Of a stretch of 64,000 nt of DNA, positions 18,524 through 54,595 are shown piece by piece; the stretch's first letter is position 1; each line of letters starts with the position of its first letter. A program made the position numbers and the translations under genes. Under the pieces are notes generated by a model that was not told the DNA's origin, ran no database searches, and saw only the letters and a list, made by a program, of their open reading frames with translations. The stretch spans positions 71,532 to 135,531 of the forward strand of contig BCKZ01000005.1 in NCBI GenBank assembly GCA_001600815.1, written 5' to 3'. The stretch comes from Alloascoidea hylecoeti. Its lineage: Eukaryota.

Positions 18524-21499
18524 CTAAAAGAACCAGTGCTTTTTTTTTTTCTTCTTTGTATCTTTAACTGAAGATTGTAATTGGTTTGTTTGAATTCCCA
18601 TCTTCATCATTTTATTTATATTCATATCTTGTCCTGCTAAACCTAATCCAACTCCATTTAATCCTCTTCCGATTGATCGCATTTCTTTATCTTTTTCTCC
18701 GTTGACTTTTTCTGTTTCTATTGGTTTAACTTTGGGTTCAAAAGTAGGAATATTAGATGACGTGGTAACTTTTACCATTGCAGGCTCAACTTTAACAGAC
18801 TCAATTACAATTGGTTTTTCCACAGCTCTTTGTCCAAGTTTTGAAGATGATGGTTTAGGATCTATAGGTGTCGGTTTAGTTTCAAAAGGCCGAATTAAGT
18901 CATTAGTAAGCTCAATCGGTTCTATATTTGCAATTTGATTTGATTTTGATTTTGATTTTGATTCCGTAACTGGTTTAGCTGAAAGAATTGGTATTTTGAA
19001 GAAATTACCCTTAGTTAACTTTGGTTGAATTAATTTTTTTGATCTCACTGTCTCTTCAGGTCGATCTTTAATAACAGTGTCAGATATTGCCACCGATATA
19101 TCATTTTTTATTTTTGTTGTATCATGATCAGTGATAAATTCTGTTTCTTTTTTTTTATTCACATTTCCCTTTTCCTTTTCAACAAGTTTTGAAATATCAT
19201 CTTTCTGATCAGTGTTAATTTCTTTCTCATCATATTTCTTGTCAACAATACCTTTCCCACTTATAATATCCTTCTCTCTGATACTATCTTTTTCCTTGAT
19301 ATCATCTTTTTTAACAATACTATCGTTCTCCTTGATATTATTTATGTTATTAATAACATTACCTTTTTCATTCCCATTATTATCTTTCTTATCACCACTA
19401 ACTATCAAACTAACCACGATAATAATCACCAATAAAACCATAATAATAAATTCAAAACTATCTTTTATTCCACCATTATTATTAATTAATTGTTTTTCAT
19501 CATGTTTTGAACTTGTTATAAATTCAATTATTTTAAATAAAATATTTTTAATTATGATTATTATTAACATTGTCAAAGCACCACCAGCATATGAAATAAA
19601 ATTAAATTGAAAATCATTATCATTATCATTATTGCTTAGTATTGGTGTTAATTTAGTTGAATCGATTTTAAAAATATCATCAGAAGGTCTAATAGAACTT
19701 GTATTTGTATTTGTACTTGTATTCGATCCTATTTTCTTCATTGAAACAGAATCTAATCTTAATTCATTATTATTAATGCTTCTCCTTTTAATGCTATCTG
19801 TTTGAAGTTTAACATTTCGAAATTTTTTAACTGGAGTTGGCGCCGGAATTGGAATTGGAAGTGGAATTGTAGCTGGAGTTGGAATTGGTATAGTTTGTAT
19901 ATTACTATCATTTAATATAGGATCATTATTAAGTGTTTGCAATGATATATTACAAGTTTCAATTGTATTTTTAATTTCTTCCTCAATTGTTTGAGATATT
20001 GAATCAGATAGTATCGGAACTTTAATAATTTCTTTTGGTACAATGGGATCTGGTTCTTGTAGAGTTTGAATTATTGAATCATATACGATCGGAAGTTTTT
20101 CATCAACATTATTAGTTTGAATTACCGAATCATATACTATTGGAAGATTTTCAATAATGTTGTTGGTTTGAATTGATTTTTCTTTTGTTAGAATAACTGG
20201 AGTTTCAATTGGAGATGTGATTGGATTTAAGTTTACGTTTAAATTTAAACTATGATTATCATTTTTTCTTAATATTTCCGATGTTCTTGTAGTAACAGGT
20301 GAAGGAGTTTCATGTTCATTTATATCATCTTGTAATTGTAAATTCTGAAGTTCCAATTGTTCTTCATAAGGTATTGGAATTTTTGGTGGTAATGGTGGAG
20401 CATTATTAAAAATACTTGAATCACTAGCAGAATCGGATTCAACATAACTATTATCATCATCATTATTATCAATAGTATTAATATTAATTGATTTTTCATT
20501 ATCTTTCTTTAATTCATTTTCAATTGTAATTGGGAAATTAAAGCTTTGAAGATTTTGTTGTAAAATTGAATCATTGTTATCATTAAACTCATTGAACTCA
20601 TTAATATTTTCCATGTCTTGAATTTGCTGAAAGTTTGATTTTGTATCTTTATCTAAGTTTAAATCCGATTCATAATCATAATTGTTTGTATTTGAATTTA
20701 TTGGGATCATGTTAATTATATTTGAACCTTGTACTTGCATGTTTTTATCTTCATGTTCATGGCCATTATCATGCTCAACTCCATGTTCATTTTCCTTTTC
20801 TTTCTCATGTTCATATTCATATTCATTTTCATCTTCGTCTTCATCTTCTAATTTAAACTTTTTCTTTTTATTTCTTGTTGTTACATTAATATTTGATAAT
20901 TTATTACCGGAATTAATCTTTTTCTTTAAAATATTTTGTCCAGAATGTAAATTTTTTGATTCTTTTTCATCATATAATAATTGATTATTATTCAATGGTG
21001 ATTGTAACACGTAATTTTGATCATGTTCATGATCATGTTCGATTGCAGCAGAACTTTTCGCTCTATTATGATTTATCAAACCTTCTTGAGATAAATCACT
21101 GTAATTGTAATTATGATAATCACCAGCATAAGTTTTTCTTTTAGCTAACTTACTTTGTTTTTCTGAAGTTGAAGGTTTGTGAAGGGATGAACGTCTTGAA
21201 GGTTCACTAATATCAGGAGATCCAATGAAATGGCGCAAGAAGTCCTTATTATATTGATCATTCAGAGAATTTATCTGATGGTGACGACGATCAGGTTTAC
21301 TTAAAGAAGGAATTCTTGAAGGAAGTTTTTTTGGTTGGAATTTGACAGGAATTGAAGAACCATGTTGTCTCCTTTTAGAAGGTTTATCGTGTGTTAATAT
21401 AACAGCTCCTCTTTCGCCAGAATCGACCAGCTGATCATCACTGCCAATTTGCAAAGAATACGATTTGTCGATACTTTTATTTTTACGGTGAGTTCCCAT
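18524..21499 (-). CDS. Large low-complexity orphan protein with two TM helices and a QT-motif array
   Basis: Uninterrupted ORF of ~990 codons from ATG 21499; two hydrophobic segments; no recognisable folded domain. Confidence 0.75.
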   Translation of the reverse strand: MGTHRKNKSIDKSYSLQIGSDDQLVDSGERGAVILTHDKPSKRRQHGSSIPVKFQPKKLPSRIPSLSKPDRRHHQINSLNDQYNKDFLRHFIGSPDISEPSRRSSLHKPSTSEKQSKLAKRKTYAGDYHNYNYSDLSQEGLINHNRAKSSAAIEHDHEHDQNYVLQSPLNNNQLLYDEKESKNLHSGQNILKKKINSGNKLSNINVTTRNKKKKFKLEDEDEDENEYEYEHEKEKENEHGVEHDNGHEHEDKNMQVQGSNIINMIPINSNTNNYDYESDLNLDKDTKSNFQQIQDMENINEFNEFNDNNDSILQQNLQSFNFPITIENELKKDNEKSININTIDNNDDDNSYVESDSASDSSIFNNAPPLPPKIPIPYEEQLELQNLQLQDDINEHETPSPVTTRTSEILRKNDNHSLNLNVNLNPITSPIETPVILTKEKSIQTNNIIENLPIVYDSVIQTNNVDEKLPIVYDSIIQTLQEPDPIVPKEIIKVPILSDSISQTIEEEIKNTIETCNISLQTLNNDPILNDSNIQTIPIPTPATIPLPIPIPAPTPVKKFRNVKLQTDSIKRRSINNNELRLDSVSMKKIGSNTSTNTNTSSIRPSDDIFKIDSTKLTPILSNNDNDNDFQFNFISYAGGALTMLIIIIIKNILFKIIEFITSSKHDEKQLINNNGGIKDSFEFIIMVLLVIIIVVSLIVSGDKKDNNGNEKGNVINNINNIKENDSIVKKDDIKEKDSIREKDIISGKGIVDKKYDEKEINTDQKDDISKLVEKEKGNVNKKKETEFITDHDTTKIKNDISVAISDTVIKDRPEETVRSKKLIQPKLTKGNFFKIPILSAKPVTESKSKSKSNQIANIEPIELTNDLIRPFETKPTPIDPKPSSSKLGQRAVEKPIVIESVKVEPAMVKVTTSSNIPTFEPKVKPIETEKVNGEKDKEMRSIGRGLNGVGLGLAGQDMNINKMMKMGIQTNQLQSSVKDTKKKKKKHWFF

Positions 21500-23568: not shown

Positions 23569-24444
23569 CTAACCATCTAAAGCACGTAAAGCTTCTTCCA
23601 ATCGTTTCCTACCCTCTTGTTGTTTAACATTATCATTTCCAGAACATACGTCAAGTGCTAATCTTGATAAGGAATCAACAATGTTATCTAATAGTTGTTT
23701 ATCTCTTGTGTTTATATCTATTCCTTCAAATTCTTTCCCTATTGCTGTATCGGTTTTGGGATGGCTGCGATGACGATGCCGTTTCGATTTTAATTTTGAT
23801 TTTGATTTTTCTGATTTTGTGGATTTTGAATTCAGAGAGTGTTTTGATTTTACAAATTCAACAGATTTCAAATTCGAAGATTTTTCTGGTTTTGTAGATT
23901 TAAAGATTTTAGTATTGCTATCTGTATCTGTAATCATCCTTGTTGACGTCCCAGCCTCAATTTCACCCTCCGAAAACTCAACAACCGGTCTCAATTGATC
24001 TGTAAAATCAAATTGGCTTCGACTCTCCGGTAAAGAATCAGTTGTGTTCATGGAATAATAACTTTCAATGGCTCCTCGATTTTTACTGGTTTCATTTTCA
24101 ACATAAATACCAACTTTTTTAATTTTTGAAGCTGAATATTTAGATATTAATAATTTCTGTGCATCTGTTATTGCTGAATTAATAACCTGATATGAAGATA
24201 TATCTGAACATATAGAACTTCTAACTGAGTTTCTGACAGAATTTCTAACAGGAGGATCTAAAATTCCATCCTCGGAGGAAATAGAATGGTGCTTTCGCTC
24301 TGGTCGTTGTATTTGTCTTTGTCTTTGGATCATTTTTTGAACGAGAAAGATAGTTTGAAGTGATAATCGAAACTTAGCCTTAGTATCCATGAACTTCCTA
24401 ATCGGGGTATGAAAGCAGGGTAACTTACATGCTATCGCAACCAT
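23569..24444 (-). CDS. Hypothetical protein with a helical C-terminal motif
   Basis: 291-codon ORF (alternative start MDTK at ~24390). The C-terminus DKQLLDNIVDSLSRL...EGRKRLEEALRALDG looks conserved, with a tentative resemblance to Nba1-type bud-neck proteins (from memory, unverified). Confidence 0.55.
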   Translation of the reverse strand: MVAIACKLPCFHTPIRKFMDTKAKFRLSLQTIFLVQKMIQRQRQIQRPERKHHSISSEDGILDPPVRNSVRNSVRSSICSDISSYQVINSAITDAQKLLISKYSASKIKKVGIYVENETSKNRGAIESYYSMNTTDSLPESRSQFDFTDQLRPVVEFSEGEIEAGTSTRMITDTDSNTKIFKSTKPEKSSNLKSVEFVKSKHSLNSKSTKSEKSKSKLKSKRHRHRSHPKTDTAIGKEFEGIDINTRDKQLLDNIVDSLSRLALDVCSGNDNVKQQEGRKRLEEALRALDG

Positions 24445-25875: not shown

Positions 25876-26919
25876 TTAGAAATAAATAACATTTTGAGGA
25901 ATATACGACTCTTCCAAGTATTCGATCTCCTCAGTACTAAGAGAAACTTTAAGCGCTTCAACAGCCTCATCAATTCTGATTTCACTACTGAATCCAATAA
26001 TCGGACACATTCCTTTTGAAATAACATAAGCTGTTGCAACTTGAGACATTAAAACTCCTTTTTCTTTGGCTACCTTTTCAACTCTCCTATGTATTTCATC
26101 TAGGGAGTCCGAAGTATTCTTCAAAGATCCTTTAATCACAAAATCAGTCTGACCGCGTAAAGAATTTTCTTTCTCTTGAATAGGACGTGCTAAGATTCCT
26201 CTAGCAAGTGGGGACCAAGGAATCATTCCAACCCCAGTTTCATTACAAAACGGAATCATTTCTCTCTCTTCTTCTCTATATATTAAATTATAGAAATTTT
26301 GCATAGAGATGAATTTTGTCAAGTTATGTTTCTCTGCTATGAATTGTAATTGTGCAAAGTCAACGGCTCTCATACTTGAAGCTCCAATGTAACGAGCTTT
26401 ACCCGATCTGACGATATTATTCAAGGTAGTCATGATCTCTAAATTTGGTTTCGTGGGTCCAATCAATCTATGAATCTGATACACATCAATATACGTTCCA
26501 AGTCTTTCAATGGAGTCATCTACGGCATCCATCAAATGCTTCCTTGATAATCCAACTTGATTAACATATTTCTGTTTTGGATTGACAGGCCCAGATCCTG
26601 ATTTAACCAGATCAGTGGCAGGTGGTTTACCAACAGGATCGGAAATAAAGAAACATTTGGTTAAAATAACAACAGTTGATCTTTTAATTGAATACCTTTT
26701 AAGGAATTTTCCTAATAAGATTTCTGATTTCCCGTTACTATAAGTATCTGCAGTATCATATGTTCTAATACCAACATCGTAAGCTTTCTTCATTAACGAT
26801 AATACTTTTTCCTCGTTTTCAATTACCCATTTGAACCATGATTCCTCACCATATGACATACAACCCATAATAATTTTAGAGATCTTAAGACCTGAATTTC
26901 CAAGATTTTTATATTCCAT
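25876..26919 (-). CDS. Aldo-keto reductase, aryl-alcohol dehydrogenase-like (YPL088W/CSH1-IFD type), copy 1
   Basis: LGNSGLKISKIIMGCMSYG, DTADTYSNG (catalytic Asp/Tyr), ILTK (Lys), QIHR (His), GKARYIGASSM, IPWSPLARG. Confidence 0.9.
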   Translation of the reverse strand: MEYKNLGNSGLKISKIIMGCMSYGEESWFKWVIENEEKVLSLMKKAYDVGIRTYDTADTYSNGKSEILLGKFLKRYSIKRSTVVILTKCFFISDPVGKPPATDLVKSGSGPVNPKQKYVNQVGLSRKHLMDAVDDSIERLGTYIDVYQIHRLIGPTKPNLEIMTTLNNIVRSGKARYIGASSMRAVDFAQLQFIAEKHNLTKFISMQNFYNLIYREEEREMIPFCNETGVGMIPWSPLARGILARPIQEKENSLRGQTDFVIKGSLKNTSDSLDEIHRRVEKVAKEKGVLMSQVATAYVISKGMCPIIGFSSEIRIDEAVEALKVSLSTEEIEYLEESYIPQNVIYF

Positions 26920-28007
26920 TTTTCAATTGATTCTATAAGATTTATATTTTGTTTGTGAATGTTTTAATGTGCAATTCTTTAATTTGATTGATTCAATCTT
27001 TAAACTTGCTAATGAAAATGAATTGATATCATATTTATAAGTTTTATTATATACTATACCTTATACTAAAAAGATTTGAGTCGATTTTTATGTATCGAAA
27101 ATTTCTTTAAATCCTGTAAATCCATATTTTTATATATGCACCCAAGAATTGTTATTTCCTAACTCCGTTTTCACTTATTATCAACTTCAATTATTTAGTT
27201 ATAATAGATCTTGAATATTATGATTATTATTAAAAATTTTATTTTAGCTCGAGACCTAGACCTTATATAATTATAATTAGTTTAGATTCTCATTGAAGTA
27301 CGAATAATGTTTTCTCGTCCTTACCCGAACATTTAATCCCCTTTATTCCGAAACCACACATACACACAACGAATATTTCCCTCTGCCATACCGAATTGTA
27401 TCTTTTTATAGGTTATTTAATTAATATTTTAGGTTCTTTCTTAAGTTAATTTTCATCATTTTTAGCTCTTCTAATGAGCTTTCTGACGCTATGGTATTTA
27501 GCACCCCTTGAATTTTCTGATGGTTTTGCTTAAGCTTATAGCTAACTATATGAATCTTCTATTTTAAATCCAGACTCTACTTCTGAGAATCTGATACATA
27601 GTACCATAAGGTGTTATATTAATAAACGCCTGAGAACGGATATCATCACTAATCGTAATATACCCCCTTCTTTATGTAATTTTTATGAATCAAGCAAACG
27701 ATATTTCAAGAAGCATTCATATTTCTATGGACGAACTACAATATTGAGATTTGACAGTAACACTTGATAAGCATGTTCATAATAGTTGCTCCTGAAATTG
27801 GTTCTAGATCTACTTTTACTTTTGATTAGGAATCACAACTATGCAAAGTCAGTATGGCTCGAGATTCCAGAAGAATGGCTAAAATTTTCATAAATGATTC
27901 ATATATTAATGAATTATCCATTAAATAGCATCAATACTCAACTGTAGTTAATATAGTGATAACTTATATATCTAACTTATATATCTAGGCCTATACCGGT
28001 ATATAAG

Positions 28008-29045
28008 TCAAAAATGCCCTTTAGGAGGCTGTGGAACATAAGGTTCTTCCAAATATTTAATCTCTTCGTCTGTTAACTTAATTTTCAAAGCAGCAAATGC
28101 ATCATCAACTCTTGATTCGTTATTCAATCCAACGATTGGTGAAGCACCTTTATAAATAACCCATGCAAGAGAGATTTGTGACATTGGTACATTTCTCCTT
28201 TTGGAAATTTCCTCTACTCTACCAATAATTGTATCTCTTGGTTTCGATTCGTCGCTGTAAAGGTATGAGATTGTTACACCTCCACCTCTCTCAGTAGATA
28301 ATTTTTCTGATGCCGGACGTGCTAAGAGGCCACCTGATAATGGAGACCAAGGGATTAGACCAACTCCAGTTTCTTTACAAAATGGAATCATTTCTCTTTC
28401 CTCTTCTCTATCAACTAAATTATATAAATTTTGCATTGATATAAATTTGGACCATCCATTTTTTTCTGCAATAAATTGTAATTGAGCAAATTGATATGTC
28501 CACATTGATGATGCTCCAATATATCTGACCTTTCCATTTTTAACAACATCATCGAGAGCTTTCATTGTTTCTTCTTTTGGTGTTGAAGGATCGAACCTAT
28601 GAATTTGAAGAACGTCAATATAGGTGCCTAATCTTTTAACTGATGCATCAACAGCATCCATAATATGTTTTCTTGATAATCCATATTCATTTAAGTAATT
28701 ATCATCCAATTGACCGTTATGTGCTAGCTTTATCAATTCTAGTTGATCGGGATTCTTTTCTGGATTACAAAGAAAGAAAACTTTTGTTAAAATAACAACA
28801 GTCGATCTTTTAATATTATATTTCTTCAAGAATTTTCCTAAGATAACTTCTGATTGTCCATTACTATACGTATCAGCAGTATCAAAAGTTCTCATGCCAA
28901 GATCATACGCTTTCTTTAAAATTGAATAGACTTTTTCTTCATCTTCAAGAACCCAGGAACTCCATGACTTCTTACCGAAAGACATACACCCCACAATAAT
29001 TTTTGAGATCTTAAGACCTGAGTTTCCAAGATTTGTATACTCCAT
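28008..29045 (-). CDS. Aldo-keto reductase, aryl-alcohol dehydrogenase-like, copy 2 (tandem paralog)
   Basis: Same motif set with intact QIHRFD; diverged from copy 1. Confidence 0.92.
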   Translation of the reverse strand: MEYTNLGNSGLKISKIIVGCMSFGKKSWSSWVLEDEEKVYSILKKAYDLGMRTFDTADTYSNGQSEVILGKFLKKYNIKRSTVVILTKVFFLCNPEKNPDQLELIKLAHNGQLDDNYLNEYGLSRKHIMDAVDASVKRLGTYIDVLQIHRFDPSTPKEETMKALDDVVKNGKVRYIGASSMWTYQFAQLQFIAEKNGWSKFISMQNLYNLVDREEEREMIPFCKETGVGLIPWSPLSGGLLARPASEKLSTERGGGVTISYLYSDESKPRDTIIGRVEEISKRRNVPMSQISLAWVIYKGASPIVGLNNESRVDDAFAALKIKLTDEEIKYLEEPYVPQPPKGHF

Positions 29046-31368: not shown

Positions 31369-32001
31369 ATGAATTATTTAAAATACTTCGGAGAATTTAT
31401 TAACCATTTAATAGGACAAATTGATCAAATGAGTTTAGATATAAATATGGTATTAGAAAAGTTAGATAAAGACCAAATGCTAAGATGTTCAAAATTTGAA
31501 TCGTTGATGACACAGAAGGACAATTACGAGGCGCACTCTAAAAGATACCAAAATAACTCTGATATTAGAAATATCGAAAGCAATAGTAAAAACAATATCA
31601 CTGAATATGAACATTCAAATTCCAATTCTACTTCTAATTCTCTCGCAAGATCTGGTACAAAGAAAATTGGTTCTGATACCACGTCTAATGATATCTCTCC
31701 AGCTAGTAGTAGTACGGCGGTTAACCCCGGGGATTCAATATTTACAAATTTTACACCACACTCCAATATAAATGATACCGACTCAAATCTAGAACAGTTA
31801 GAAAGGGGATTGATCATATCAAGTCCAGTTACAGCTGAAAGCCCCTCAACGGCTATTTGGAGTGATGTTTATGAAGAGCTAGATGTAGCAAGACCGTTCA
31901 AATGGGACACTGAAAGCATTTGCTTGACTATTGTTTTTTTTATATTAACCGTTTGTATCATTTTGTTATTATGCTTCTTATTTTACTATATATCCAAATA
32001 A
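31369..32001 (+). CDS. Hypothetical tail-anchored membrane protein
   Basis: ~210 codons from the first ATG; Ser/Asn-rich middle; single hydrophobic helix at the extreme C-terminus. Confidence 0.45.
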   Translation: MNYLKYFGEFINHLIGQIDQMSLDINMVLEKLDKDQMLRCSKFESLMTQKDNYEAHSKRYQNNSDIRNIESNSKNNITEYEHSNSNSTSNSLARSGTKKIGSDTTSNDISPASSSTAVNPGDSIFTNFTPHSNINDTDSNLEQLERGLIISSPVTAESPSTAIWSDVYEELDVARPFKWDTESICLTIVFFILTVCIILLLCFLFYYISK

Positions 32002-36260: not shown

Positions 36261-37181
36261 ATGAGATTCGCACCACCTCGTGGAGTTTGGGTTCCAATAC
36301 CTACCTTCTTCAAGTCAGATCGCTACACAATTGATTTTGTTACTCAAGTTAATCATGCAAAATATTTAGAGGATAATGGAATAAGTGGGCTTGTCATAAT
36401 GGGGTCAACTGGTGAAGCAGTTCACCTTGTTAGAGAAGAGAGAGCAAAGATTATCTCTAGTCTACATGAAGCTGTGAAAATCCCCATCGTTGGTGGTGTT
36501 ATTGCAAATTCTGTTGGCGATGCGTTGGAAGAAATCGATAGCATCAAAGGAGCAGGGGCTTCAGCAGCTTTAGTATTAGCTTCAAATTATTTTGCAGGCT
36601 CTTTGACACAACAAGGAATTATTGACTGGTATACAATCATTGCAGATAAAAGTAGTTTGCCAGTTTTACTTTATTATTATCCCGGAGTTTCAAATAATAT
36701 TTATATTGATCCATCTACATTCAAGACTTTAAGTGCACATCCAAATATCATCGGCGCTAAACTATCGCATGGTGATCTTTCGCACCTTACAATAATAGCA
36801 TCAGATCCGGAAATCAAAGCCAACAACTTCCGAACATTTACTGGTTTAGGTCAAATTTTATTACCCTCATTACTAATGGGGGCTAGTGGCTGTGTTGACG
36901 CTTTAGCAGGAGCTTTTCCAAAGACCCTTGTTAAGATATTTAATTTAGCAAATGAGAAAAACTTTGATGAGGCCGCAAAGTTACAATTTGTTGTCAGTAA
37001 AGCAGAAGAAATTGTGGTTAAGCTAGGTGTTGTCGGTATAAAAAGAGCTATTCGAGAAGCGGCTAGATTCGGTGACATTAATGTAGGAAGAGCTCCATTG
37101 AATCAAGAGTTAGCTGTTGGAGCTTGGGAGCATTACCAACATTATTTTGAAGATCTCAAAGCATTAGAAAATTCTCTATAG
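36261..37181 (+). CDS. LRA4: L-2-keto-3-deoxyrhamnonate aldolase (DHDPS/NAL family)
   Basis: GSTGE, LLYYYPGVSNN, Schiff-base Lys in IIGAKLSHGD, TGLGQILLP; closely resembles yeast Lra4 as I recall it; clustered with LRA2. Confidence 0.85.
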   Translation: MRFAPPRGVWVPIPTFFKSDRYTIDFVTQVNHAKYLEDNGISGLVIMGSTGEAVHLVREERAKIISSLHEAVKIPIVGGVIANSVGDALEEIDSIKGAGASAALVLASNYFAGSLTQQGIIDWYTIIADKSSLPVLLYYYPGVSNNIYIDPSTFKTLSAHPNIIGAKLSHGDLSHLTIIASDPEIKANNFRTFTGLGQILLPSLLMGASGCVDALAGAFPKTLVKIFNLANEKNFDEAAKLQFVVSKAEEIVVKLGVVGIKRAIREAARFGDINVGRAPLNQELAVGAWEHYQHYFEDLKALENSL

Positions 37182-37429
37182 CTCTAGTAGTACATATACA
37201 CCAGCTGTATGGTTAATAAAAACTAAAAAATATGATATGTAAATATATATCGACCTATATTGATTTCATTCATAAGAACGATTAAATAATAAAATAAATT
37301 TTTTATGGTTATGGTACGTATTATACAAACGAGAAAAAAAATATGTACTTTTTTAAAATCATTCAAAACTTTGTAAAATTGGAGTTGGAATAGATACCAA
37401 AGTTTTCTTGTAATAGTGTTAGAAATATA

Positions 37430-40390
37430 CTACTGTGCTTTATTATTAGGATTCGTTTGATTATTAATAAGCCAATCTTGGGAAGATCTTCTACTATTCC
37501 AAAGATTATGTTGATAGAAACCAGGAGTGAGCGTTCGTTTGTTATGATTATGGATATCTTCAGGTTCTTGATTGACGTTAATATTACCATTTAGATCAGA
37601 ATTTGAAGGACCAGCCATTTTTTGATATTGAAATTGTTGGTTATTGTCAGGTGTCAAACCCAATGATTTAATATCCGAAATATTCTTAAGATAATAATCT
37701 ACTGAATCGTTAGCATTTGCTATACCATATGATCCAAGTTCTTCATTTGTATTGAGAGATTTTGGAAATTTAAACCATTCAAAAATATTTTCCAAGTTTA
37801 CAGAAGAATCAAACGATGGTAATCCAGTCGTATTATAGGGCGAAGGAGTTGCTACAACATTTTGTCCAAATTGATTGAGTGATGTTGGTATATTGGTATC
37901 TGGATATGAGATTGTTGTTGGTAAGGATGGTTGATTTTGCGATGGTAATTTTGGAGATGGTTTCACGCCTCCAGAGGAAGGTTCAGATCTGCTCATTTTC
38001 TTTGATAAAATAAAATCCAGGGTATAGGCATTATGCCTCATATCAGATAAAATTCTAGTACTGGAAGGATGAGAGCGGTCAATAATATTATTTTTTGAAT
38101 TTTCAGTTATATCAATAATACCTTCATCATCATTGATATCCTCATCCTCATCATCGCTATTATTAGATTTTGATTCATTTTTATTATGATCTAAATCATT
38201 TGATTTTTGAAGGGTAAAGGTAGTATTTTTATTCTTCGATTTATCTTCCTCATTTAATACGAAGCTTAAAATTTTGGCAAATTTTACTGATGAAGGCCAA
38301 GAAACTCCAATTGAAAATAAAGCTTTAATAAGTGTGTTTAAATCATCGGGGAATGGATTACCATTCATCACACAATCCACCAGTAATAATCTTGCTGTAA
38401 CCCATAAGGAGAAAGCATATTGAGGGCTATCTTTTATCCAAGGTCCATCCAAGTTTGATGGTTCTAAAGTTTTGACAACGTTAATAATTTTTGACGTGGA
38501 TTCTAAGCATCTCTCTCTAGCAGTATTTGAAGGTAAGAACAATTCTGATCTTGCATTTGGATAAGCAGCGCTTGAGTTTAATCTTATTATTGTTGTATGA
38601 TAAAGAGAATGTAATTTATCAATATAAGGATCATCACACTCTTTCATCGTTCCATTTACATTCCCATTATCAGGAATTGTGTAAAAAAATTGTTCAAAAT
38701 TATCATTATCTAATAATGACTGATATTTAGGTGTTAAAGTAGTTTTCCATTCTCGAATTTCATTATCTAATTTACAAAATGTCATTTGCCAATTCATTAC
38801 TTCATCTACTTTTAAAATATCAACAGGAATGCGTAAAAATTCATGAATTTTACCCAATATATGAACTAATTCCACATAATAAGAAAATGAATCATATGTA
38901 TCATCCTCTGTTCCAGTTAGAATCACATTTGGATGAGATTGTGTTCGTAACCAACGGGTCTGAGATGGAAGCGGAATATTTACAGGTGATGAACTTGCAA
39001 CAGATGGTGACTGATTTTGATATTCATTTGAATCATTATTTAACCATATTTTCATTTTAACAGGTAATAATTTATCAACTTCAGAAGTTGGAAGTTTAAA
39101 TGGAAAAGATGTTGCAACCGCTGATAAACGATCTAATATAAATATCGACCAAAATAATCGTCTTCGAGATTCATGTTCTACCCAACTATCAGGTGCACCA
39201 AGTAATTTGGCAGATATTGTAGCTATTGTTTTATGAGAAGATTTTTTCAATTCATGATCAGGACCACTAGAGAAACGATTTTCATAATTTTTTTTGCTAT
39301 GTAATTTTTCTTTGCAAAGTTGTAGTTGTATAACTCCAGCGCATAGTAAAGATAAAATGCTCCATAAATCTGGACCATTTGAAGTTCCATATAAGTCCAA
39401 AGCAAGTAAAGTAAGCGCCTGTAATTGCTGTATATTTTCGACTTTATAGCATAATAAGATGATTTTTTCTTTTAAGAATTTATATAAGGTTTCATTTTCT
39501 GCAGATGCGTCGATATATCTTAATGAACAAAGCAATATACCATACAACACAAATTCTGAATTATTTATTGCATTATTAGGAGAATGTGAGCGAGAGTGTT
39601 TAGCAGGGTTAGGTTTTGTAAAAAGTGAATGAATCGTATGGGCAGGATGAAGAAAAGGTAAATGTGGGTGGATTTTTTTAAAGAATATATTAACCATATA
39701 CCTAACGGTTGAAACAGATGGTAAGCCTGGCCATGGGAAAGAGTTATCATCATAATATGGTGAATTTTTGGCCGACTGTATTACAGGTACTTGTATTGAT
39801 AGTGGTGAAACCGGATCTGTAGAGGTCCGAGTAGCCGAATCAGCAGTGATACCATAAGTATTCACATTCATCGAGGGTTGAAATTGAAAAGAGTTTGCAT
39901 TTGAAAAAGATAATTGCAGCTGGCTATAATTGTTTTTCAAAGATGCTATTTGATTTTTCAATGATGATATTTCACCATCATGCGATGACAAAGTGACTTC
40001 CAGACGGTCTAATCGTTCGCTGTATTTCTTCCCAAACCCAGGCTGAAGGCCAGGTTTTTTCATAGGGGAGTAGACACAGTCTACACCATTTTTAGCACAA
40101 TAGGCACAACTTGGTTTTCGACCATTACACTTCACTTTTCGTGCTTTACAAGCGTCGCAGGATCTCGATATTCTTACCACATCAGGTGGATGATCCTCCG
40201 AACCTCTTTTTCGTTTATGGGGCATTGAAGTTTCAGTTGTAGGATTTGACGAGGATGGCTCCTTTGGCCCGGAGTCCGATCCTCGTGTCCCCTGCATATC
40301 CTCCGTACACTCTGTACCAATGGGCTGCACAACGGTGGACTGATGCGAAGATCCAGTCACGTGTTGTGGGGTTTGCTCAGATCCCAGCAT
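37430..40390 (-). CDS. TRC1: Zn(II)2Cys6 transcription factor, probable rhamnose regulator (Trc1/RhaR-like)
   Basis: CDACKARKVKCNGRKPSCAYCAKNGVDC zinc cluster, coiled coil, middle homology region ESRRRLFWSIFILDR. The symbol is inferred from its position between LRA4 and LRA2. Confidence 0.75.
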   Translation of the reverse strand: MLGSEQTPQHVTGSSHQSTVVQPIGTECTEDMQGTRGSDSGPKEPSSSNPTTETSMPHKRKRGSEDHPPDVVRISRSCDACKARKVKCNGRKPSCAYCAKNGVDCVYSPMKKPGLQPGFGKKYSERLDRLEVTLSSHDGEISSLKNQIASLKNNYSQLQLSFSNANSFQFQPSMNVNTYGITADSATRTSTDPVSPLSIQVPVIQSAKNSPYYDDNSFPWPGLPSVSTVRYMVNIFFKKIHPHLPFLHPAHTIHSLFTKPNPAKHSRSHSPNNAINNSEFVLYGILLCSLRYIDASAENETLYKFLKEKIILLCYKVENIQQLQALTLLALDLYGTSNGPDLWSILSLLCAGVIQLQLCKEKLHSKKNYENRFSSGPDHELKKSSHKTIATISAKLLGAPDSWVEHESRRRLFWSIFILDRLSAVATSFPFKLPTSEVDKLLPVKMKIWLNNDSNEYQNQSPSVASSSPVNIPLPSQTRWLRTQSHPNVILTGTEDDTYDSFSYYVELVHILGKIHEFLRIPVDILKVDEVMNWQMTFCKLDNEIREWKTTLTPKYQSLLDNDNFEQFFYTIPDNGNVNGTMKECDDPYIDKLHSLYHTTIIRLNSSAAYPNARSELFLPSNTARERCLESTSKIINVVKTLEPSNLDGPWIKDSPQYAFSLWVTARLLLVDCVMNGNPFPDDLNTLIKALFSIGVSWPSSVKFAKILSFVLNEEDKSKNKNTTFTLQKSNDLDHNKNESKSNNSDDEDEDINDDEGIIDITENSKNNIIDRSHPSSTRILSDMRHNAYTLDFILSKKMSRSEPSSGGVKPSPKLPSQNQPSLPTTISYPDTNIPTSLNQFGQNVVATPSPYNTTGLPSFDSSVNLENIFEWFKFPKSLNTNEELGSYGIANANDSVDYYLKNISDIKSLGLTPDNNQQFQYQKMAGPSNSDLNGNINVNQEPEDIHNHNKRTLTPGFYQHNLWNSRRSSQDWLINNQTNPNNKAQ

Positions 40391-40571
40391 ATAAAGTTTA
40401 TTTGTGTGTGTCGGATGAAAGATACGAGGTGTCGGTTCATCTTATGCCCACAGGGTAAGGGTCATCACGTGATTATACTCTATATCTTTACTCCGATATT
40501 TACACAAAATATTTGTATAAAGATAGGTAAATAGATGAAAATGTTGGTTTCATTTTGTATGTAGATCCAAA

Positions 40572-41618
40572 ATGAGCACCAATCATAAAAGAAAGACAAT
40601 TGATACCCATGTTCACTTATATGGGACCCCACAATTGAAAAATCTAGCGTGGATGAAAGAATCTGAAAATTCACCTTTGAATTCTAGTCATACTATCGAC
40701 AAATACATCACAGATGCATCAGATATCGATAATTTAGATATAGAAGGTATTATTTTTATTGAAGTAGATGTTAAATCAAGTGTCACCACTATTCCACAAG
40801 AACAAGGCTGGGAATTACCTATTGAAGAGTATGCAATGATAGGAAGAATTATTAGTGGAAAGTTAGACCCAAATGAAGGTGAATCGAACAAGAAAACAAG
40901 AAATCTTATAAAAGGTTTTATTCCATGGGCACCTATTCCTTTAGGAAAAGAAGCAGTTGATAAATATATTACTTTACTTAAAAATAAGGATAAAGAATGT
41001 TATCAGTTTGTTAAAGGATTTCGTTATCTTGTTCAAGATAAACCCCCAAAAACAATGTTACAAGATAAATTTATTGAATCTCTAAATTGGATTTCAGAAA
41101 ATGGGTTTGTATTTGATTTAGGTATCGATGTTCATAATCCTAATGGGGGTTTATGGCAATTTGAAGAAGCCTTTGAAATGTTTAGTAAAACACCTAACAC
41201 AACTTATATCATCAATCATTTAACCAAACCTGATCTTGAAGCCAATCCAAAAACAATAGAAAATTATGATAAATTTATTAAATGGAGAGAATTAATGACA
41301 AAATTAAGTAAACATGAAAAATCCTATATGAAATTCTCTGGTGGCTTTTCAGAATTACCCATTGAAATAGTTAATAATTTAGAAAAATGTATTGATTATA
41401 TTTATCCATGGGCAAAAACTTGTTTTGAATTATGGGGTGAAGATAGATTTATATGGGGTAGTGATTGGCCAGTTTGTACTCTTAAATTTGAAGGTTCGTC
41501 AAAATCAATTAACCGTTGGAGCACAATTTGTGGCAATCTATTAGGTAAGTTTGGCGTAAATGAGGAGGGAAAAAATAAAATATTTTATATTAATGCTAAG
41601 AAGGCTTACAACCTCTAG
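40572..41618 (+). CDS. LRA2: L-rhamnono-1,4-lactonase (amidohydrolase_2 family)
   Basis: IDTHVH, VKGFRYLVQDKP, FDLGID, IINHLTKP, MKFSGGFSE, WGSDWPVC, NAKKAYNL. Confidence 0.85.
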   Translation: MSTNHKRKTIDTHVHLYGTPQLKNLAWMKESENSPLNSSHTIDKYITDASDIDNLDIEGIIFIEVDVKSSVTTIPQEQGWELPIEEYAMIGRIISGKLDPNEGESNKKTRNLIKGFIPWAPIPLGKEAVDKYITLLKNKDKECYQFVKGFRYLVQDKPPKTMLQDKFIESLNWISENGFVFDLGIDVHNPNGGLWQFEEAFEMFSKTPNTTYIINHLTKPDLEANPKTIENYDKFIKWRELMTKLSKHEKSYMKFSGGFSELPIEIVNNLEKCIDYIYPWAKTCFELWGEDRFIWGSDWPVCTLKFEGSSKSINRWSTICGNLLGKFGVNEEGKNKIFYINAKKAYNL

Positions 41619-42187: not shown

Positions 42188-44274
42188 TCAGGATAGATCT
42201 CCCTCAAAATAATCAATATGTATCTTATTCGGTAAGTCTGACTTAAAATAATCTTGCAAAGAGAGCTTAACATCATGTATCATCGAATATGGTCCACAAG
42301 TCATGACAGCAAGTGACTTCCTTTCTTTTAAAATTTCAAGATAAGAAGCTATATAAGCTCTAAGATCCGGTTTGATTCCCACATTATGATATGTATTTTC
42401 AAGCGCTTTATCAAACTCCATAGTCTGATGTGGTGGTTGTGTGCTTCCAGAGCTTTCAGAATTAATTTCAATATCATCTGTAATCAACTGACTGGTACAA
42501 AACACTTTAACTATAAGATTGTCGCATTTCTCTAATTCTATCAACTCATTCCTATACTCCTCAATGAACTCTATATTATGACAAACCCATATAAAAATAA
42601 TTGAGGTTGATTGAAGTCCCTCAAATCTTGCCAAATCTATGGCATGTGAATACGCCATTGAAAATCCAACACCACCCGCGATAAATATTGACACTTCATG
42701 CTTATATATTGGTAATGGATTCCCATATGGACCGTCCACAAATACGGGTAAAGTGCATTCTCCATTTTTAGAAGAAACATATTCAATTAATTTCTTCGAT
42801 AATCCATAATTCTTTTTAATTTTTAGTTTAATAATATTTTCTTCTTCTTTCTTTGGATTAATAATAGAAATTGGATGAGATTCAAAAAACCTTTTCCAAA
42901 ATAAAATATAAACATAATTCCCTGGAGAATATTTCCACCAACCTGAATATGGGATTTTGAGTTGAATTATATCGGTATCATTAGTATCTTTTAGAATTCT
43001 ACATTCGGCAAATAATAAACCACCAGAACGGATTATTTTAACTATTCTAAGTATAACTTCAGCGAACCATATGAAGACAGAATAATATATAAAACTTATT
43101 ATTGTATGATTGTCATCTTGCCATTTAGTTAAAGACCATCTCACATTAAAATCACCGCTTTTAAATGCATGTAAGAAATAGAATATTGCATGTAATAGTA
43201 TTAGAATTGTAGTAACTCTTGAGATCCATTTATGAAAAAAATTAAACTTATTAAAAGACCAACCAGTAATAAGAATCAATGGATTGTTTCTTGCTGAAAA
43301 TAACGCAATTACTGGTAACTGAATAATTCCTAGAATTCCAGTTTTATCAGCGGCATATACCAATATTTGGTTTGTTTTAGTTTGAAACATGTTATTTGGT
43401 TCCGATAAATCGTAACGAATTGTACAAGCAATGGTTATGATAATAATATAACATATAATAGTTAATATTGGCAGCCAATCTAAATGAAAACTGATGGGGA
43501 TTTTTATACTGTGTCTTTTGTTAATGCGAATTTCATTTTTCCCTGGTAATATGTTCAGAGAACATGAATATCGAAGTTTCAATCTTGTTATTAGTGAATG
43601 AGTATCATTAAGATTCAGAGAACTGTAGACCCAGCAAACAGTGTTATAAATGGTGCCCAGAAACACCACCATTCCCCAATAGATATAAAAAAGCGAGATT
43701 CTAAATATTTAAAATTAAAAGTATTTTCTGTTAGTAACCAAAGTTAGGGTCAATATTCCAATTATAATCAAACCAATTACCCCAAATCAATTCCTCGTTT
43801 CCTATGATTGATGAGTCTGGAAGCAGAATTGATGCTTATATTATACATTTCAGGGTCTGTACTGGCTGGATTTGATATAGTTCCATTAAAAGAAGTATAT
43901 ATTTTTGCCCATCGATAATCAACTAAATATTCAGTTGCATTTTCAAAAATCCCAACAAGATCATCAAAAGAATAATCAATCTTTCCTTGGAGTAAACATG
44001 TATTTTTTAAGAAATGATATGCCTCTGTAACAATCTCAACACTATTGGCACCATTATCTATACATGTCAGAACTGTTCCCATGAATGGTTGATTCTTGCA
44101 ACGACAAGTGTAATCGGGATCTGGTGGAGGACAATCAAAATTATAATCGGTATAGTTGTTTGCGACATAAAGACATGCTACTCCCAGCTGAGAAGTCAAT
44201 CCGAGGGCTTCAACCAAATAAATTCGTAAAAAGACCAGAATAAGTGGTGTTGTCAAACTAAAAGGGATGAACAT
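42188..44274 (-). CDS. Ferric/cupric reductase (FRE family); 2 exons (44274-43781, 43700-42188); internally shortened
   Basis: Intron GTAATT..TACTAAC..TAG (43780-43701) joins the signal/Cys-rich ORF in frame to the ORF with RNNPL, HKWISR..LHA, HPIS, DGPYG, AGGVG, CGP. Confidence 0.8.
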
Positions 44275-47449: not shown

Positions 47450-49141
47450 TTATAGCTTGTATGTAATTGTAGAAGATGTATTCTTACCTTCTTCTAAAGG
47501 TTGTGGAGCTGGGATTGTACCAACAGAAACAGGATTTAGTGGATGAATAGCAGCGGCTGGAACAGCACCAGGAACAGGAATACCATTAACTGAAATGGGG
47601 GCATCATGCCATTGTGATTTAATAGAACTATTGAAGAAGTTGTCACCGTATTCAACAACATCGGCAATATACTTTCCAACAGCTGGCAAATTCTTAAGAC
47701 CAAAGCTGAATTCACCAGTACCGAGAACAAGATTCTTATAAGATGGATGTTCACCAATAAACAAAGGCGTTGGTCGCTCAACAGGCAATGTAAGAGCAGG
47801 CAATGGGAAAATCTTGGTAGAATCGTCAACATCTTCTGTGGTAATAACAGCACCTGGAGTCTTTTGAACAACTTCAATAACAGTTTCATCACCAGCAGGT
47901 GTGGTTGTGGTTGTGGTAGTAGTAACATCAATACCAACATCCTTAGCATCGCCAGAAATAACAGTCTTCTCAGCAATAATTGTATCACCAGATTCGGTAA
48001 CAGCACCCTTAACATTATTTTCCTCATCGAAAATCAAAGAAGTAACCTTTCCTGAGACAAATTTAGCACCAAGCTTTTGTAATTCTTGTCTGATAGCTTT
48101 TAATGTATCCAATTCTTTTTCACCTTCATAGTATTGATAAGTAGCATTGAATTTTTGAGTGTCAGTGACATCATCATATTTATAAGAAGAGTATTTCTCT
48201 TCTGGAGATGAATACTCATTGGCAGCTTCAAACTTACCTCTAAAGAATGGGTCTGTTTGCCATAATTTAGCTGCTTCAACAGCAATTTCAGTCTCCTCGG
48301 TTGGCTTGACGTAAGTAGTTTCGGTCTTGACAGCAGTAGCTGGTGCAGTATAAGAAGTTTCCTCGGTAATGACAGTTGGTTCACCGTAAACGTATGGGGT
48401 TGGTTTAGGAGCAGTCCAAGTCTTCTTTTCCTCAACAACTTCAACTTCTGGAGCAGCATTGGTATATGTTGTTTCAACAACCTTTGGTTCAGTGTACACA
48501 AATGGTGTTCTTGCTGGCTTAGTGGTGGTATATGTTGTTTCGACAGTTTTTGGTTGGGAATAAACAAAAGGGGTCTTAGTAGAGTAAGTAGTTTCCTCTC
48601 TAACAACAGTTGGTGGTTGAGGTGCGGCATAAGTTGGAGGAGCGGAACCATAAGTTGTTGTTGTCTCCTTAACGACCTTTGGAGAATCTGGAGCATCAGC
48701 ATAAACAGTCTCATAAACTGGGTAAGGAACACCAGTTGGACCTTGTCTAATATAAGTAGGTTTGGGTGGTAAAGCAGGAGTTGAAGTAGTAGTGGTTTCC
48801 TCCTTTATCACTTTATTGTCATCTATGTATGTGGTAGTTTGAGAAACAGTTGGTTTTGGTGGAAGAGGTGGAGCAATAACAAAAGGAGTTTGAGCACTAG
48901 AAGGTTCATAGCTTGTAGTTTGAATGGTTGAGTAAGGGCCTTCTTCAGTTGTTGTTGTTGTCTTAACTTCCTTTTTGGTGTCAACTCCGGGGATTTTATC
49001 GACATTTGGGTCAACAATTGTGACATTTTTGTACCCTTGTCTTAAAAGCCAAAGGGATGTGGACAAACCATAAGCACCACCGCCAATGATAAGAATTGGG
49101 GCGTTTTTATCAGCAGGGGGTGTTGGAAGATCTTGAGCCAT
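47450..49141 (-). CDS. Sarcosine/pipecolate/fructosyl-amine oxidase-derived protein with a large Pro/Thr/Tyr-rich insertion
   Basis: ATG 49141 with a TATA upstream; ILIIGGGAYGLSTSLWLLRQGYKNVTIVD Rossmann motif; C-terminal EHPSYKNLVLGTG...GLKNLPAVGKYIAD; 563 codons with no stops. Confidence 0.8.
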   Translation of the reverse strand: MAQDLPTPPADKNAPILIIGGGAYGLSTSLWLLRQGYKNVTIVDPNVDKIPGVDTKKEVKTTTTTEEGPYSTIQTTSYEPSSAQTPFVIAPPLPPKPTVSQTTTYIDDNKVIKEETTTTSTPALPPKPTYIRQGPTGVPYPVYETVYADAPDSPKVVKETTTTYGSAPPTYAAPQPPTVVREETTYSTKTPFVYSQPKTVETTYTTTKPARTPFVYTEPKVVETTYTNAAPEVEVVEEKKTWTAPKPTPYVYGEPTVITEETSYTAPATAVKTETTYVKPTEETEIAVEAAKLWQTDPFFRGKFEAANEYSSPEEKYSSYKYDDVTDTQKFNATYQYYEGEKELDTLKAIRQELQKLGAKFVSGKVTSLIFDEENNVKGAVTESGDTIIAEKTVISGDAKDVGIDVTTTTTTTTPAGDETVIEVVQKTPGAVITTEDVDDSTKIFPLPALTLPVERPTPLFIGEHPSYKNLVLGTGEFSFGLKNLPAVGKYIADVVEYGDNFFNSSIKSQWHDAPISVNGIPVPGAVPAAAIHPLNPVSVGTIPAPQPLEEGKNTSSTITYKL

Positions 49142-50014
49142 TGTTAAATAGGAATGATGTATTCTATTAAAAGAGGGTTGTGTGAAGAAGAAGAAGAGTT
49201 CAGGGGAGGTTAAGTAGAAATTTATATGAGCAATTGCCAATGCCAACTTCCAGCCTCCTCCATAAATGTGTTGCAAACAAATCTCTATTATAATATATCA
49301 TAATTTTGCATCTTTTCCACGACAACTCACTCTAATGCAAATGCACATATGCATTGCACAATTCAAAGAAAATACTGCATATGGCGTAGTACATGCTGCA
49401 CTCTGCCTATTTGTAAGAATTTTCAACATCCGCCGCCTCCTATTCCCATAAATATTATTGTAATTGGCCAATTTTGTTAACTTCCCGCTTCCTTTCTGTT
49501 TTCGCTTCTTGTTTTACAATTTTCTTCTATTTACTTTTAACTGGATTCGGTACAGAGTCAACGAAACATATAGCCAACCTCTTCCTTGCCCTCCATTATT
49601 CAATATTTTGCATATTTTGTAGCATGATCAAGGGTATTGTAATGCTCAACTGCTAGCTTTATGTTATGGAGACCTCTTCATCATTAATATTGTCAAGGCA
49701 AATAAATATATAAATGCACGCGCACGCCTCTATTTTTAGCTCCTTTATAATTTTGCTGGCGATGGATTAATATTTCAAATCGATGTCCTATAGTTATAGC
49801 AAATGTAAAGATCTAGAGTAAAAAGCATGGCCACAATTACAACACATTAAAATATATCGACTGAAATAAAATAGCTTAAATTATTTATACGGAATTCATA
49901 TTACTATGATGTGATTAATAGTCAATGGTAACTACATTTAAAATTAACGATTAATTCGTTGCAACGAAAACAAAAAGAAACAAACAATATTGCAATTTCT
50001 ACTTATAATAATAA

Positions 50015-53858: not shown

Positions 53859-54595
53859 TTAGAATCCAACAACATTTTGAGCAGTATATGGCTCTTCCAA
53901 GTATTTGATGTCTTCAACACTAAGAACCACTTTAATCACTTCAACAGCCTCATCAATTCTGATTTCACTACTTACAAAACGGAATCATTTCTCTCTCTTC
54001 CTCTCTATATATTAAATTATAGAAATTTTGCATAGAGATGAATTTTGTCAAGTTATGTTTCTCTGCTATGAATTGTAATTGTGCAAAGTCAACGGCTCTC
54101 ATACTTGAAGCTCCAATGTAACGAGCTTTACCCGATCTGACGATATCATTCAAGGTAGTCATGATCTCTAACTTTGGTGTCGTGGGGTCCAATCTATGAA
54201 TCTGATACACATCAATATACGTTCCAAGTCTTTCAATGGAGTCATCTACGGCATCCATCAAATGCTTCCTTGATAATCCAACTTGATTAACATATTTCTG
54301 TTTTGGATTGACAGGCCCAGATCCTGATTTAACCAGATCAGTGGCAGGTGGTTTACCAACAGGATCGGAAATAAAGAAACATTTGGTTAAAATAACAACA
54401 GTTGATCTTTTAATTGAATACCTTTTAAGGAATTTTCCTAATAAGATTTCTGATTTCCCGTTACTATAACTATCTGCAGTAATCATATGTTCTAATACCA
54501 ACATCGTAAGCTTTCTTTATTAACGAAAATACTTTTTCTTCATCCTCAATTACCATGATTCCTCACCATATGACATACAGCCCATAATAATTTTT
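53859..54595 (-). pseudogene. Pseudogene copy of the AKR at 25876-26919
   Basis: Near-identical core; start region deleted, +1 insertion near 54481, 10-bp deletion near 54553, ~250-bp internal deletion at ~53971. Confidence 0.92.

Follow-up and report, generated by a model that had tools for sequence, protein, structure and literature searches.

Results

An intact reading frame with a long insert

The window, that is, the whole stretch of 64,000 nucleotides analysed here, is AT-rich budding-yeast DNA (the best match of its aldehyde dehydrogenase is a yeast mitochondrial enzyme, and its introns have yeast-type branch sites). A single ORF of 563 codons, running from ATG to TAA, occupies positions 47450-49141 on the minus strand and encodes a protein (563 aa; P0001) identified from the ORF list and Pfam as an amadoriase-derived pseudoenzyme. 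The frame was intact and intron-free, as a first-pass annotation of this DNA had described it, and every sequence motif quoted there was found in the translation. The HMMER comparison with DAO (PF01266) proposed at the same time yielded a match at the N-terminus (E 1.5e-11). No signal peptide was found in the 563-aa protein, the most hydrophobic stretch of 19 residues being the Rossmann strand-helix. Upstream of the gene, a TATAAAT box and, after it, a block rich in pyrimidines (49184-49226, minus strand; 45-85 nt upstream of the A(-3) start context) would constitute promoter elements; the same TATAAAT/pyrimidine/start arrangement precedes the sister gene described below. An alternative genetic code is irrelevant here, the gene having 0 CTG codons; the one CTG of the intact paralog lies at a conserved Leu/Ile site and fits Leu.

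Residues ∼61-283 (48293-48961, minus strand) were recognized by composition and self-comparison as a low-complexity insert of quasi-repeats. It consists of 24% T, 15% P, 10% V, 10% E, 8% K, 8% Y, and 1% L (T/V/I 37%; Ser plus Thr 29%) and contains about eight elements of the type (K/T)V(V/I)xE(E)T(T/S)(T/Y) and four of the type TP(F/Y)V. An open frame of this kind does not arise by chance: when the 666 nt of the insert were base-shuffled 20,000 times, no version was free of stops (mean 11.4 stops). Its repeats are real, since the best off-diagonal self-comparison score was 111 (shuffles: mean 53.5, maximum 74; n = 60) and the spacings within seven DNA repeat families were multiples of 3 in 11 of 11 cases. 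Hand-picked repeat pairs inside the insert had a pS of 0.55 and a pN of 0.17 (56 codons), a choice of pairs that favours this result. Thus, the quasi-repeats reported in the first-pass annotation, there given as ∼240 aa, are borne out in an insert of about 220 residues; between the same anchors, the loop measures 248 residues in the 563-aa protein, 36 in the intact enzyme, and 1042 in the sister, so that the net gain over fructosyl-amine oxidases is 212 residues. Nor does the insert directly follow GxGxxG, as had been claimed; family homology continues to about residue 60 and includes a degenerate motif, G52-x-D54-x-x-K57. The insert falls in the region that PMC5459902 names loop 1 (Ile55-Ile67 of Amadoriase II) and describes as length-variable and located beside the active site. 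It matched no Pfam family at E<=10 and nothing in the Atlas, and no second copy was found within its own genome. The possibility that it is an intron, which the first-pass annotation had named as a case against its own reading, was rejected: the coding strand of the gene contains no [CT]TAAC branch site, while two introns elsewhere in the same genome have the form GTAA(G/T)T..ACTAAC..AG.

Three candidate ligand motifs lie within the insert, and shuffling of the insert distinguished between them. PPTY (residues 168-171; 48629-48640, minus strand) is the sole PPxY, and at least one copy of PPxY arose in 35% of 5,000 shuffles (P 0.35); the WW-type ligand proposed earlier is, therefore, not supported. 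PPLPPKP (residues 91-97; 48851-48871, minus strand) and PALPPKP (residues 122-128; 48758-48778, minus strand) fit the class II SH3-ligand type Px(L)PPKP. The SH3-type part of the original proposal fared better in that the pair exceeds chance (P 0.004-0.008), but a single copy does not (P 0.11-0.12), and the second copy differs from the first by mostly synonymous changes. The two are probably one motif duplicated and, as SH3 ligands, only suggestive.

Several other features of the window were recorded. A gene for a ferric reductase whose N-terminal part is CFEM-like (42188-44274, minus strand) appears split near 43700-43780; the gap is an ordinary intron, whose branch site reads TACTAAC. An aldo/keto reductase ORF of 178 aa (53968-54504, minus strand) covers profile positions 38-180 of 291 and is a partial exon or a broken copy; two full copies are located at 25876-29045. 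Genes for a DHDPS-family protein, a Zn2Cys6 transcription factor, and an amidohydrolase (36261-41618) adjoin an LrgB-like gene and look like a small catabolic cluster. The ORFs at 18524-21499, 23569-24444, and 31369-32001 (991, 291, and 210 aa) had no Pfam match at E<=0.01.

A fructosyl-amine oxidase fold without most of its catalytic residues

When compared with solved structures, the intact paralog of the same genome matched Amadoriase II best (E 3e-102). A structure search with a model of the 563-aa protein, for which the alignment of intact relatives served as a guide, also returned amadoriases (Z 23, rmsd 4.6, about 253 residues), which is the outcome of the structural check suggested by the first-pass annotation. 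The parent of the 563-aa protein is the fungal fructosyl-amine oxidase (amadoriase) branch, to which the likeness to sarcosine, fructosyl-amine, and pipecolate oxidases noted initially can now be narrowed. The protein shares FAD-binding fold and motif order with Amadoriase II (PDB 3djd/3dje), Amadoriase I (4wct/4xwz), and FPOX (5t1e). In contrast to fructosyl-amine oxidases, it lacks the oxygen-site Lys, the covalent Cys, and the fructosyl-binding Trp, Glu, and Arg, and its substrate domain is reduced by about half.

Residues 1-60 (48962-49141, minus strand) align with the family HMM as the β-α-β start of a dinucleotide-binding domain; GxGxxG (G20-G22-G25) and the terminal Asp of strand 2 (D44) are retained, while the Thr after GxG is Ala and the PxS..SAG flavin loop is eroded, with both of its Ser lost. 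The GxDxNK motif, with its flavin-contacting Lys53/57, is degenerate: the family HMM aligns G52-x-D54-x-x-K57, one MAFFT alignment places the motif at D107, and the Ser residues before it are lost. Judging from the family HMM, its Asp and Lys are probably kept as D54 and K57. Beyond the insert, family homology resumes with a helix (residues 286-300; 48242-48286, minus strand), followed by the first segment of the substrate domain, which is shortened and diverged (residues 301-340; 48122-48241, minus strand), and by the middle part of the FAD-binding domain (residues 341-399; 47945-48121, minus strand), in which the conserved Gly of the CAGA motif has become D398. The second substrate-domain segment survives as a Thr-rich remnant (residues 400-459; 47765-47944, minus strand), 61 aa compared with 122. 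Mapping of the functional residues listed in PMC5459902 showed that, within this remnant, the oxygen-site Lys (Lys274) corresponds to E423 and the fructosyl-binding Glu (Glu278) to K427, that the segment with the covalent-FAD Cys (Cys335 of Amadoriase II) is deleted, the protein having zero Cys, and that Trp235 and Arg411-415 have no counterpart. The C-terminal part of the FAD-binding domain (residues 460-512; 47606-47764, minus strand) contains GEFSFGLK (residues 476-483) at the site of the GxSGxGFK motif, exactly as described beforehand, compared with GDSGQGFK in the intact paralog; only its final Lys (K483) is retained. A Pro-rich, diverged tail (residues 513-563; 47453-47605, minus strand), lacking an equivalent of Arg411, ends in YKL, which is non-canonical and PTS1-like at best. 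Altogether, 109 substrate-domain residues (48 + 61) are left of 202 (80 + 122) in the intact paralog. The earlier statement that a Thr-rich stretch replaces most of this domain has to be corrected: about half of the domain is deleted and the rest has diverged.

AlphaFold2, run with an alignment of 38 sequences, modeled the three segments of the FAD-binding domain with confidence (pLDDT of 81-98 for the blocks of the core and, in steps of 10 residues, of 83-98 for residues 11-50), but gave values below 50 over residues 69-124 and 160-254, i.e., most of the insert, and for the substrate-domain remnants (308-339 in the first). Because the single-sequence model of the protein was poor, support for the fold leans on the intact relatives. 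What remains would be a stand-alone FAD-binding domain. Amadoriase (oxidase) activity is very unlikely in a protein that has lost the Cys for flavinylation, the Glu and Arg that bind the fructosyl group, the oxygen-site Lys, and almost half of its substrate domain; the retention of D44 and K483, and probably of D54 and K57, may still allow some binding of flavin or nucleotide.

Codon adaptation and selection

Codon adaptation was calculated with weights from the enolase, GAPDH, and EF-1α genes of the same genome. The 563-codon gene reached 0.641 (second among 20 ORFs of the window) and the sister 0.652, compared with 0.47 for the intact amadoriase, which is far lower; the reference genes, left out in turn, gave 0.58-0.76. 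The impression that the codons are those of highly expressed genes was, thus, confirmed. Among 50 distinct nonreference frames (all fetched loci, one partial duplicate dropped; a set enriched for metabolic genes), the sister ranked first, the 563-codon gene fourth, and the intact enzyme 29th. Values for the individual parts of the gene, including insert and remnant segments, lay between 0.53 and 0.74, and that for the insert alone (0.612) exceeded all 2,000 amino-acid-preserving simulations (maximum 0.601).

Over the core shared by the two sisters (184 codons), dN was 0.36 and dS 1.53; the resulting ratio of 0.235 averages two lineages over hand-picked alignable blocks with dS near saturation. 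At 51 of 100 identical core residues, the sisters use different codons. The core of the pair has been under long-term purifying selection. Glycolytic-like codon adaptation together with the core dN/dS of about 0.24 argue against decay, whereas the very long branch of the 563-codon gene (1.6-1.7 changes per site) means that constraint on it is relaxed. As far as codon usage and divergence tell, the gene has probably been maintained for long and its product is probably abundant.

An intact paralog and a sister with a different array

Searching its own genome with the 563-codon gene revealed three related genes. G000:C14 encodes an intact enzyme of 432 aa with every checked catalytic motif present, and G000:C1 a more distant oxidase in an intron-containing gene. 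(At L008:1293-5032, the G000:C14 gene lies tail to tail with a gene for a 597-aa protein that looks like a glycoside hydrolase of the GH125 type.) The third gene, G000:C3 (P0055; L007:2501-6706), is the sister of the 563-codon gene and encodes 1401 aa. Its loop 1 is expanded as well, by another array of some 1000 residues, in which 21 hairpin-like half-units have EExYK as their anchor; the units are regular, ordered, and about 30-65 aa long, and they differ from one another with a pS of 0.65 and a pN of 0.31. The two proteins are 39% identical over 306 core columns and share derived core residues as well as the expanded loop, the high codon adaptation, and the promoter layout. They differ in that the repeats of the 563-aa protein are short, irregular, and rich in Thr and Pro, and in that its substrate domain has been lost, whereas that of the sister is mostly kept.

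The sister pairing was supported at 99/98 (25 rows) and 99/99 (13 rows) under LG+C20; because the branches of both derived genes are long, long-branch attraction may have contributed. Descent of the pair from G000:C14 was absent from free trees, with an AU p of 0.02 under LG+G4 and of 0.14 and 0.21 under the mixture model. Overall homology between the two arrays was not significant (20 of 500 shuffles scored as high, and the reversed sequence higher), one 15-residue segment reaching z 4.2 as the best of 13 compared (BLAST E 0.09); therefore, the arrays grew separately or diverged beyond recognition. Similarity of the sister's repeats to the enzyme's own loop-helix junction (score 15.6; shuffle maximum 11.6, n = 30, though shuffles of other proteins reached 16.6) weakly suggests that they may have arisen from it.

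Orthologs and published precedents

An ortholog of the 563-aa protein was not found in any of the collections searched. The 7,999 candidates that were scored, 309-986 aa long, included two matches, both intact enzymes, and a further search among 8,000 gave 13, all of 416-492 aa. Searching 1.84 billion representatives resulted in 51 matches, none at E<=1e-30; no ortholog was present among the 11 of 51 that were inspected, with motifs checked at 400-520 aa, and a 1285-aa match among the 51 was an unrelated repeat protein. Two metagenome scans yielded 595 and 89 pattern matches, 0 of them confirmed, and the Atlas returned only generic DAO clusters, under 0.9, for the 563-aa protein. Three metatranscriptomes that were consulted did not contain the organism. 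For the sister, likewise, a set of 7,489 candidates (770-2452 aa) included no match. Sampling of the lineage is poor, because even the intact paralog is only 55% identical to its nearest aligned relative, and the lack of orthologs does, therefore, not prove uniqueness. No description of an amadoriase pseudoenzyme with a repeat array in loop 1 was found in the literature within scope, which took in few subscription journals. Thus, an already described family of this architecture, the other case that the first-pass annotation had set against its reading, was encountered neither among the proteins nor in the literature searched.

Clues to compartment and assembly

The C-terminal YKL of the 563-aa protein fails the fungal PTS1 pattern given in PMC11842775, whereas the SKI ends of the sister and of the intact paralog pass it, as do 19 of 48 full-length relatives. 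All four members of the family in this genome end in x-K-(L/I), an ending that only the 563-codon ORF has among the 20 ORFs of the window, and the peroxisomal-type catalase of the genome ends in VKL. No paper on YKL as a PTS1 was found in a search with the same restriction to few subscription journals; one paper lists YKL only in a table. A third catalase (L036; G000:C27:223230-224402), with a signal-peptide-like N-terminus and a codon adaptation of 0.649, is possibly secreted.

Short β-branched motifs drive the assembly of peroxisomal cores (PMC11842775) and the aggregation of adhesins (PMC4989244). No TIIV-like core motif was found in the 563-aa protein, but peroxisomal core proteins without one exist (PMC11842775). 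Residues 418-429 (47855-47890, minus strand), the remnant of a substrate-domain strand, resemble an amyloid-forming Flo1 peptide described in PMC4989244 (P about 0.004 compared with shuffles, for a segment picked post hoc).

Discussion

We are confident that the 563-codon gene encodes a dead enzyme kept by selection. The claim of a catalytically dead fold that is not a product of decay is well supported by the residue losses, the codon adaptation, the dN/dS, and the existence of a sister paralog of like design. The sister and the intact parent, neither of which was visible to the first-pass annotation, provide the strongest evidence. For the role of the protein, we tentatively favour, at somewhat less than an even chance, that of a structural protein that is abundant, assembles with itself, has the dead oxidase as its chassis, and is possibly located in peroxisomes. 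According to this reading, an amadoriase gene would have been duplicated, with one copy (G000:C14) remaining an ordinary enzyme and the other line losing catalysis and splitting into the 563-codon gene and G000:C3, each of which would then have amplified repeats within surface loop 1. The FAD-binding domain would be the chassis, still folded but inert and probably free of flavin, and the insert would be the working part, with short strands rich in β-branched and aromatic residues separated by proline-rich linkers. Made in bulk, the protein would assemble with itself, or jointly with its sister, into a dense core or scaffold, of which peroxisomes are the most plausible site or source. This reading is preferred because it explains together the dead site, the conserved chassis, two repeat amplifications in one loop, and the raised codon adaptation; it is weakened by the fact that most of the insert has no confident AlphaFold structure and by the failing PTS1 pattern and missing TIIV-like motif.

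The first-pass annotation had proposed a new adaptor or structural protein. Of the two, the structural protein is favoured and the adaptor is the weaker reading, because PPxY occurs at chance level and the suggestive SH3-type pair is probably one duplicated motif. A cytosolic adaptor, which we consider unlikely, would use a disordered insert to engage SH3 domains of actin-patch or endocytic proteins via Px(L)PPKP and an Rsp5-type WW domain via PPTY. The insert was indeed modeled mostly without structure, the non-canonical YKL means that the protein may be cytosolic, and Px(L)PPKP, improbable as a pair by chance, was kept at the protein level despite synonymous change. However, neither PPxY nor one SH3-type motif is improbable by chance, the motifs account for 18 of the insert's roughly 220 residues, Px(L)PPKP is absent from the sister, and neither abundance nor the sister is accounted for. 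Codon adaptation at the glycolytic level is unusual for an adaptor protein. It is distinctly unlikely that the protein is a noncatalytic binder of flavin or nucleotide that regulates, chaperones, or anchors another protein, for instance, the intact oxidase, even though selection kept the FAD-binding domain, GxGxxG, D44, K483, and probably K57 are still present, and FOXRED1 (PMC7887287) and PDPR provide precedents in the same superfamily. Against it stand the loss of the covalent Cys, of the Thr that follows GxG, and of the PxS..SAG loop, and the change of the CAGA glycine to Asp; moreover, because the codon adaptation of the intact enzyme is ordinary, the paralogs would greatly outnumber it, and two separate repeat amplifications would be left unexplained.

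A once-functional gene drifting under relaxed selection, with neutral in-frame repeats and deletions, would account for the very long branch, the loss of about 93 substrate-domain residues, the poly-Thr runs typical of slippage, and the lack of an ortholog in the databases searched. It has little probability, given that 563 codons are free of stops and frameshifts after several large indels, that 11 of 11 repeat spacings are in frame, that codon adaptation is high in every part, and that the promoter-like elements are intact. Least probable of the readings weighed, and barely credible, is a flavin oxidoreductase that is still active with noncovalent FAD, its site opened for a large substrate and the insert acting as a tether. 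The Rossmann core and probably K57 are retained, and several relatives are without the CW Cys motif (CWYTD or CWDAD; 4 of 48 column-level motif checks aside), so the family tolerates variation around it; yet the oxygen-site Lys is missing, together with the substrate-binding Trp, Glu, and Arg and roughly half of the substrate domain.

The preferred reading, a bulk structural protein, can be compared with known systems. A working model for it is HEX-1 of Woronin bodies and other peroxisomal cores, where a housekeeping duplicate became an abundant self-assembling peroxisomal core protein (PMC11842775, PMC2213590, and PMC7559983). The fold of HEX-1 is, however, unrelated, and the 563-aa protein has a non-canonical PTS1 and no TIIV-like motif. 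In this genome, a loose search for a HEX-1-like gene found none, only three ordinary eIF5A matches; HEX-1 itself derived from eIF5A. A bolder version holds that this lineage independently built a dense-core or plug-forming organelle, comparable in function to the Woronin body, with the two dead amadoriase paralogs as its material: the Rossmann chassis would display polymerizing loop-1 arrays, and the SKI-ended sister would ferry the 563-aa protein into peroxisomes. We regard this version as a long shot.

Reuse of an amine-oxidase-type FAD fold for binding or assembly is familiar from PDPR and Rab-GDI/REP, although we know of no protein of the FOXRED1, PDPR, or Rab-GDI type with a repeat array in an active-site loop or with a substrate domain shed in the same way. 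FOXRED1, described as an FAD-dependent oxidoreductase with a chaperone role for complex I, would resemble the 563-aa protein in this reuse (PMC7887287). The medial low-complexity domains of epiplastins and articulins resemble the insert in that acid-base dyads stand between V/I residues and Leu is scarce (PMC6212826). Epiplastin domains contain about 25% Val and 3% Thr, however, compared with 10% Val and 24% Thr in the insert, which, in addition, sits inside an enzyme fold; assignment of the protein to the epiplastins was rejected, as the near-exclusion of Thr, Ser, Gly, and Ala described in PMC6212826 contrasts with 29% Ser plus Thr.

Co-option of pseudoenzymes is already known as an event; this pair of amadoriase paralogs is a new form of it. 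One genome presents three stages of the change from enzyme to nonenzyme: an intact amadoriase, a sister with an array of 1000 residues, and a gene whose substrate domain has collapsed. In both derived copies, codon adaptation has risen from an average value to that of glycolytic genes, which is the signature of crystallin-like or HEX-1-like co-option; for this enzyme family, the literature searched contained no report of such a case. The set allows a direct test of how a metabolic enzyme turns into a bulk structural protein. Loop 1, located at the substrate entrance in an enzyme family used in diagnostics, can naturally carry 200 to 1000 extra residues.
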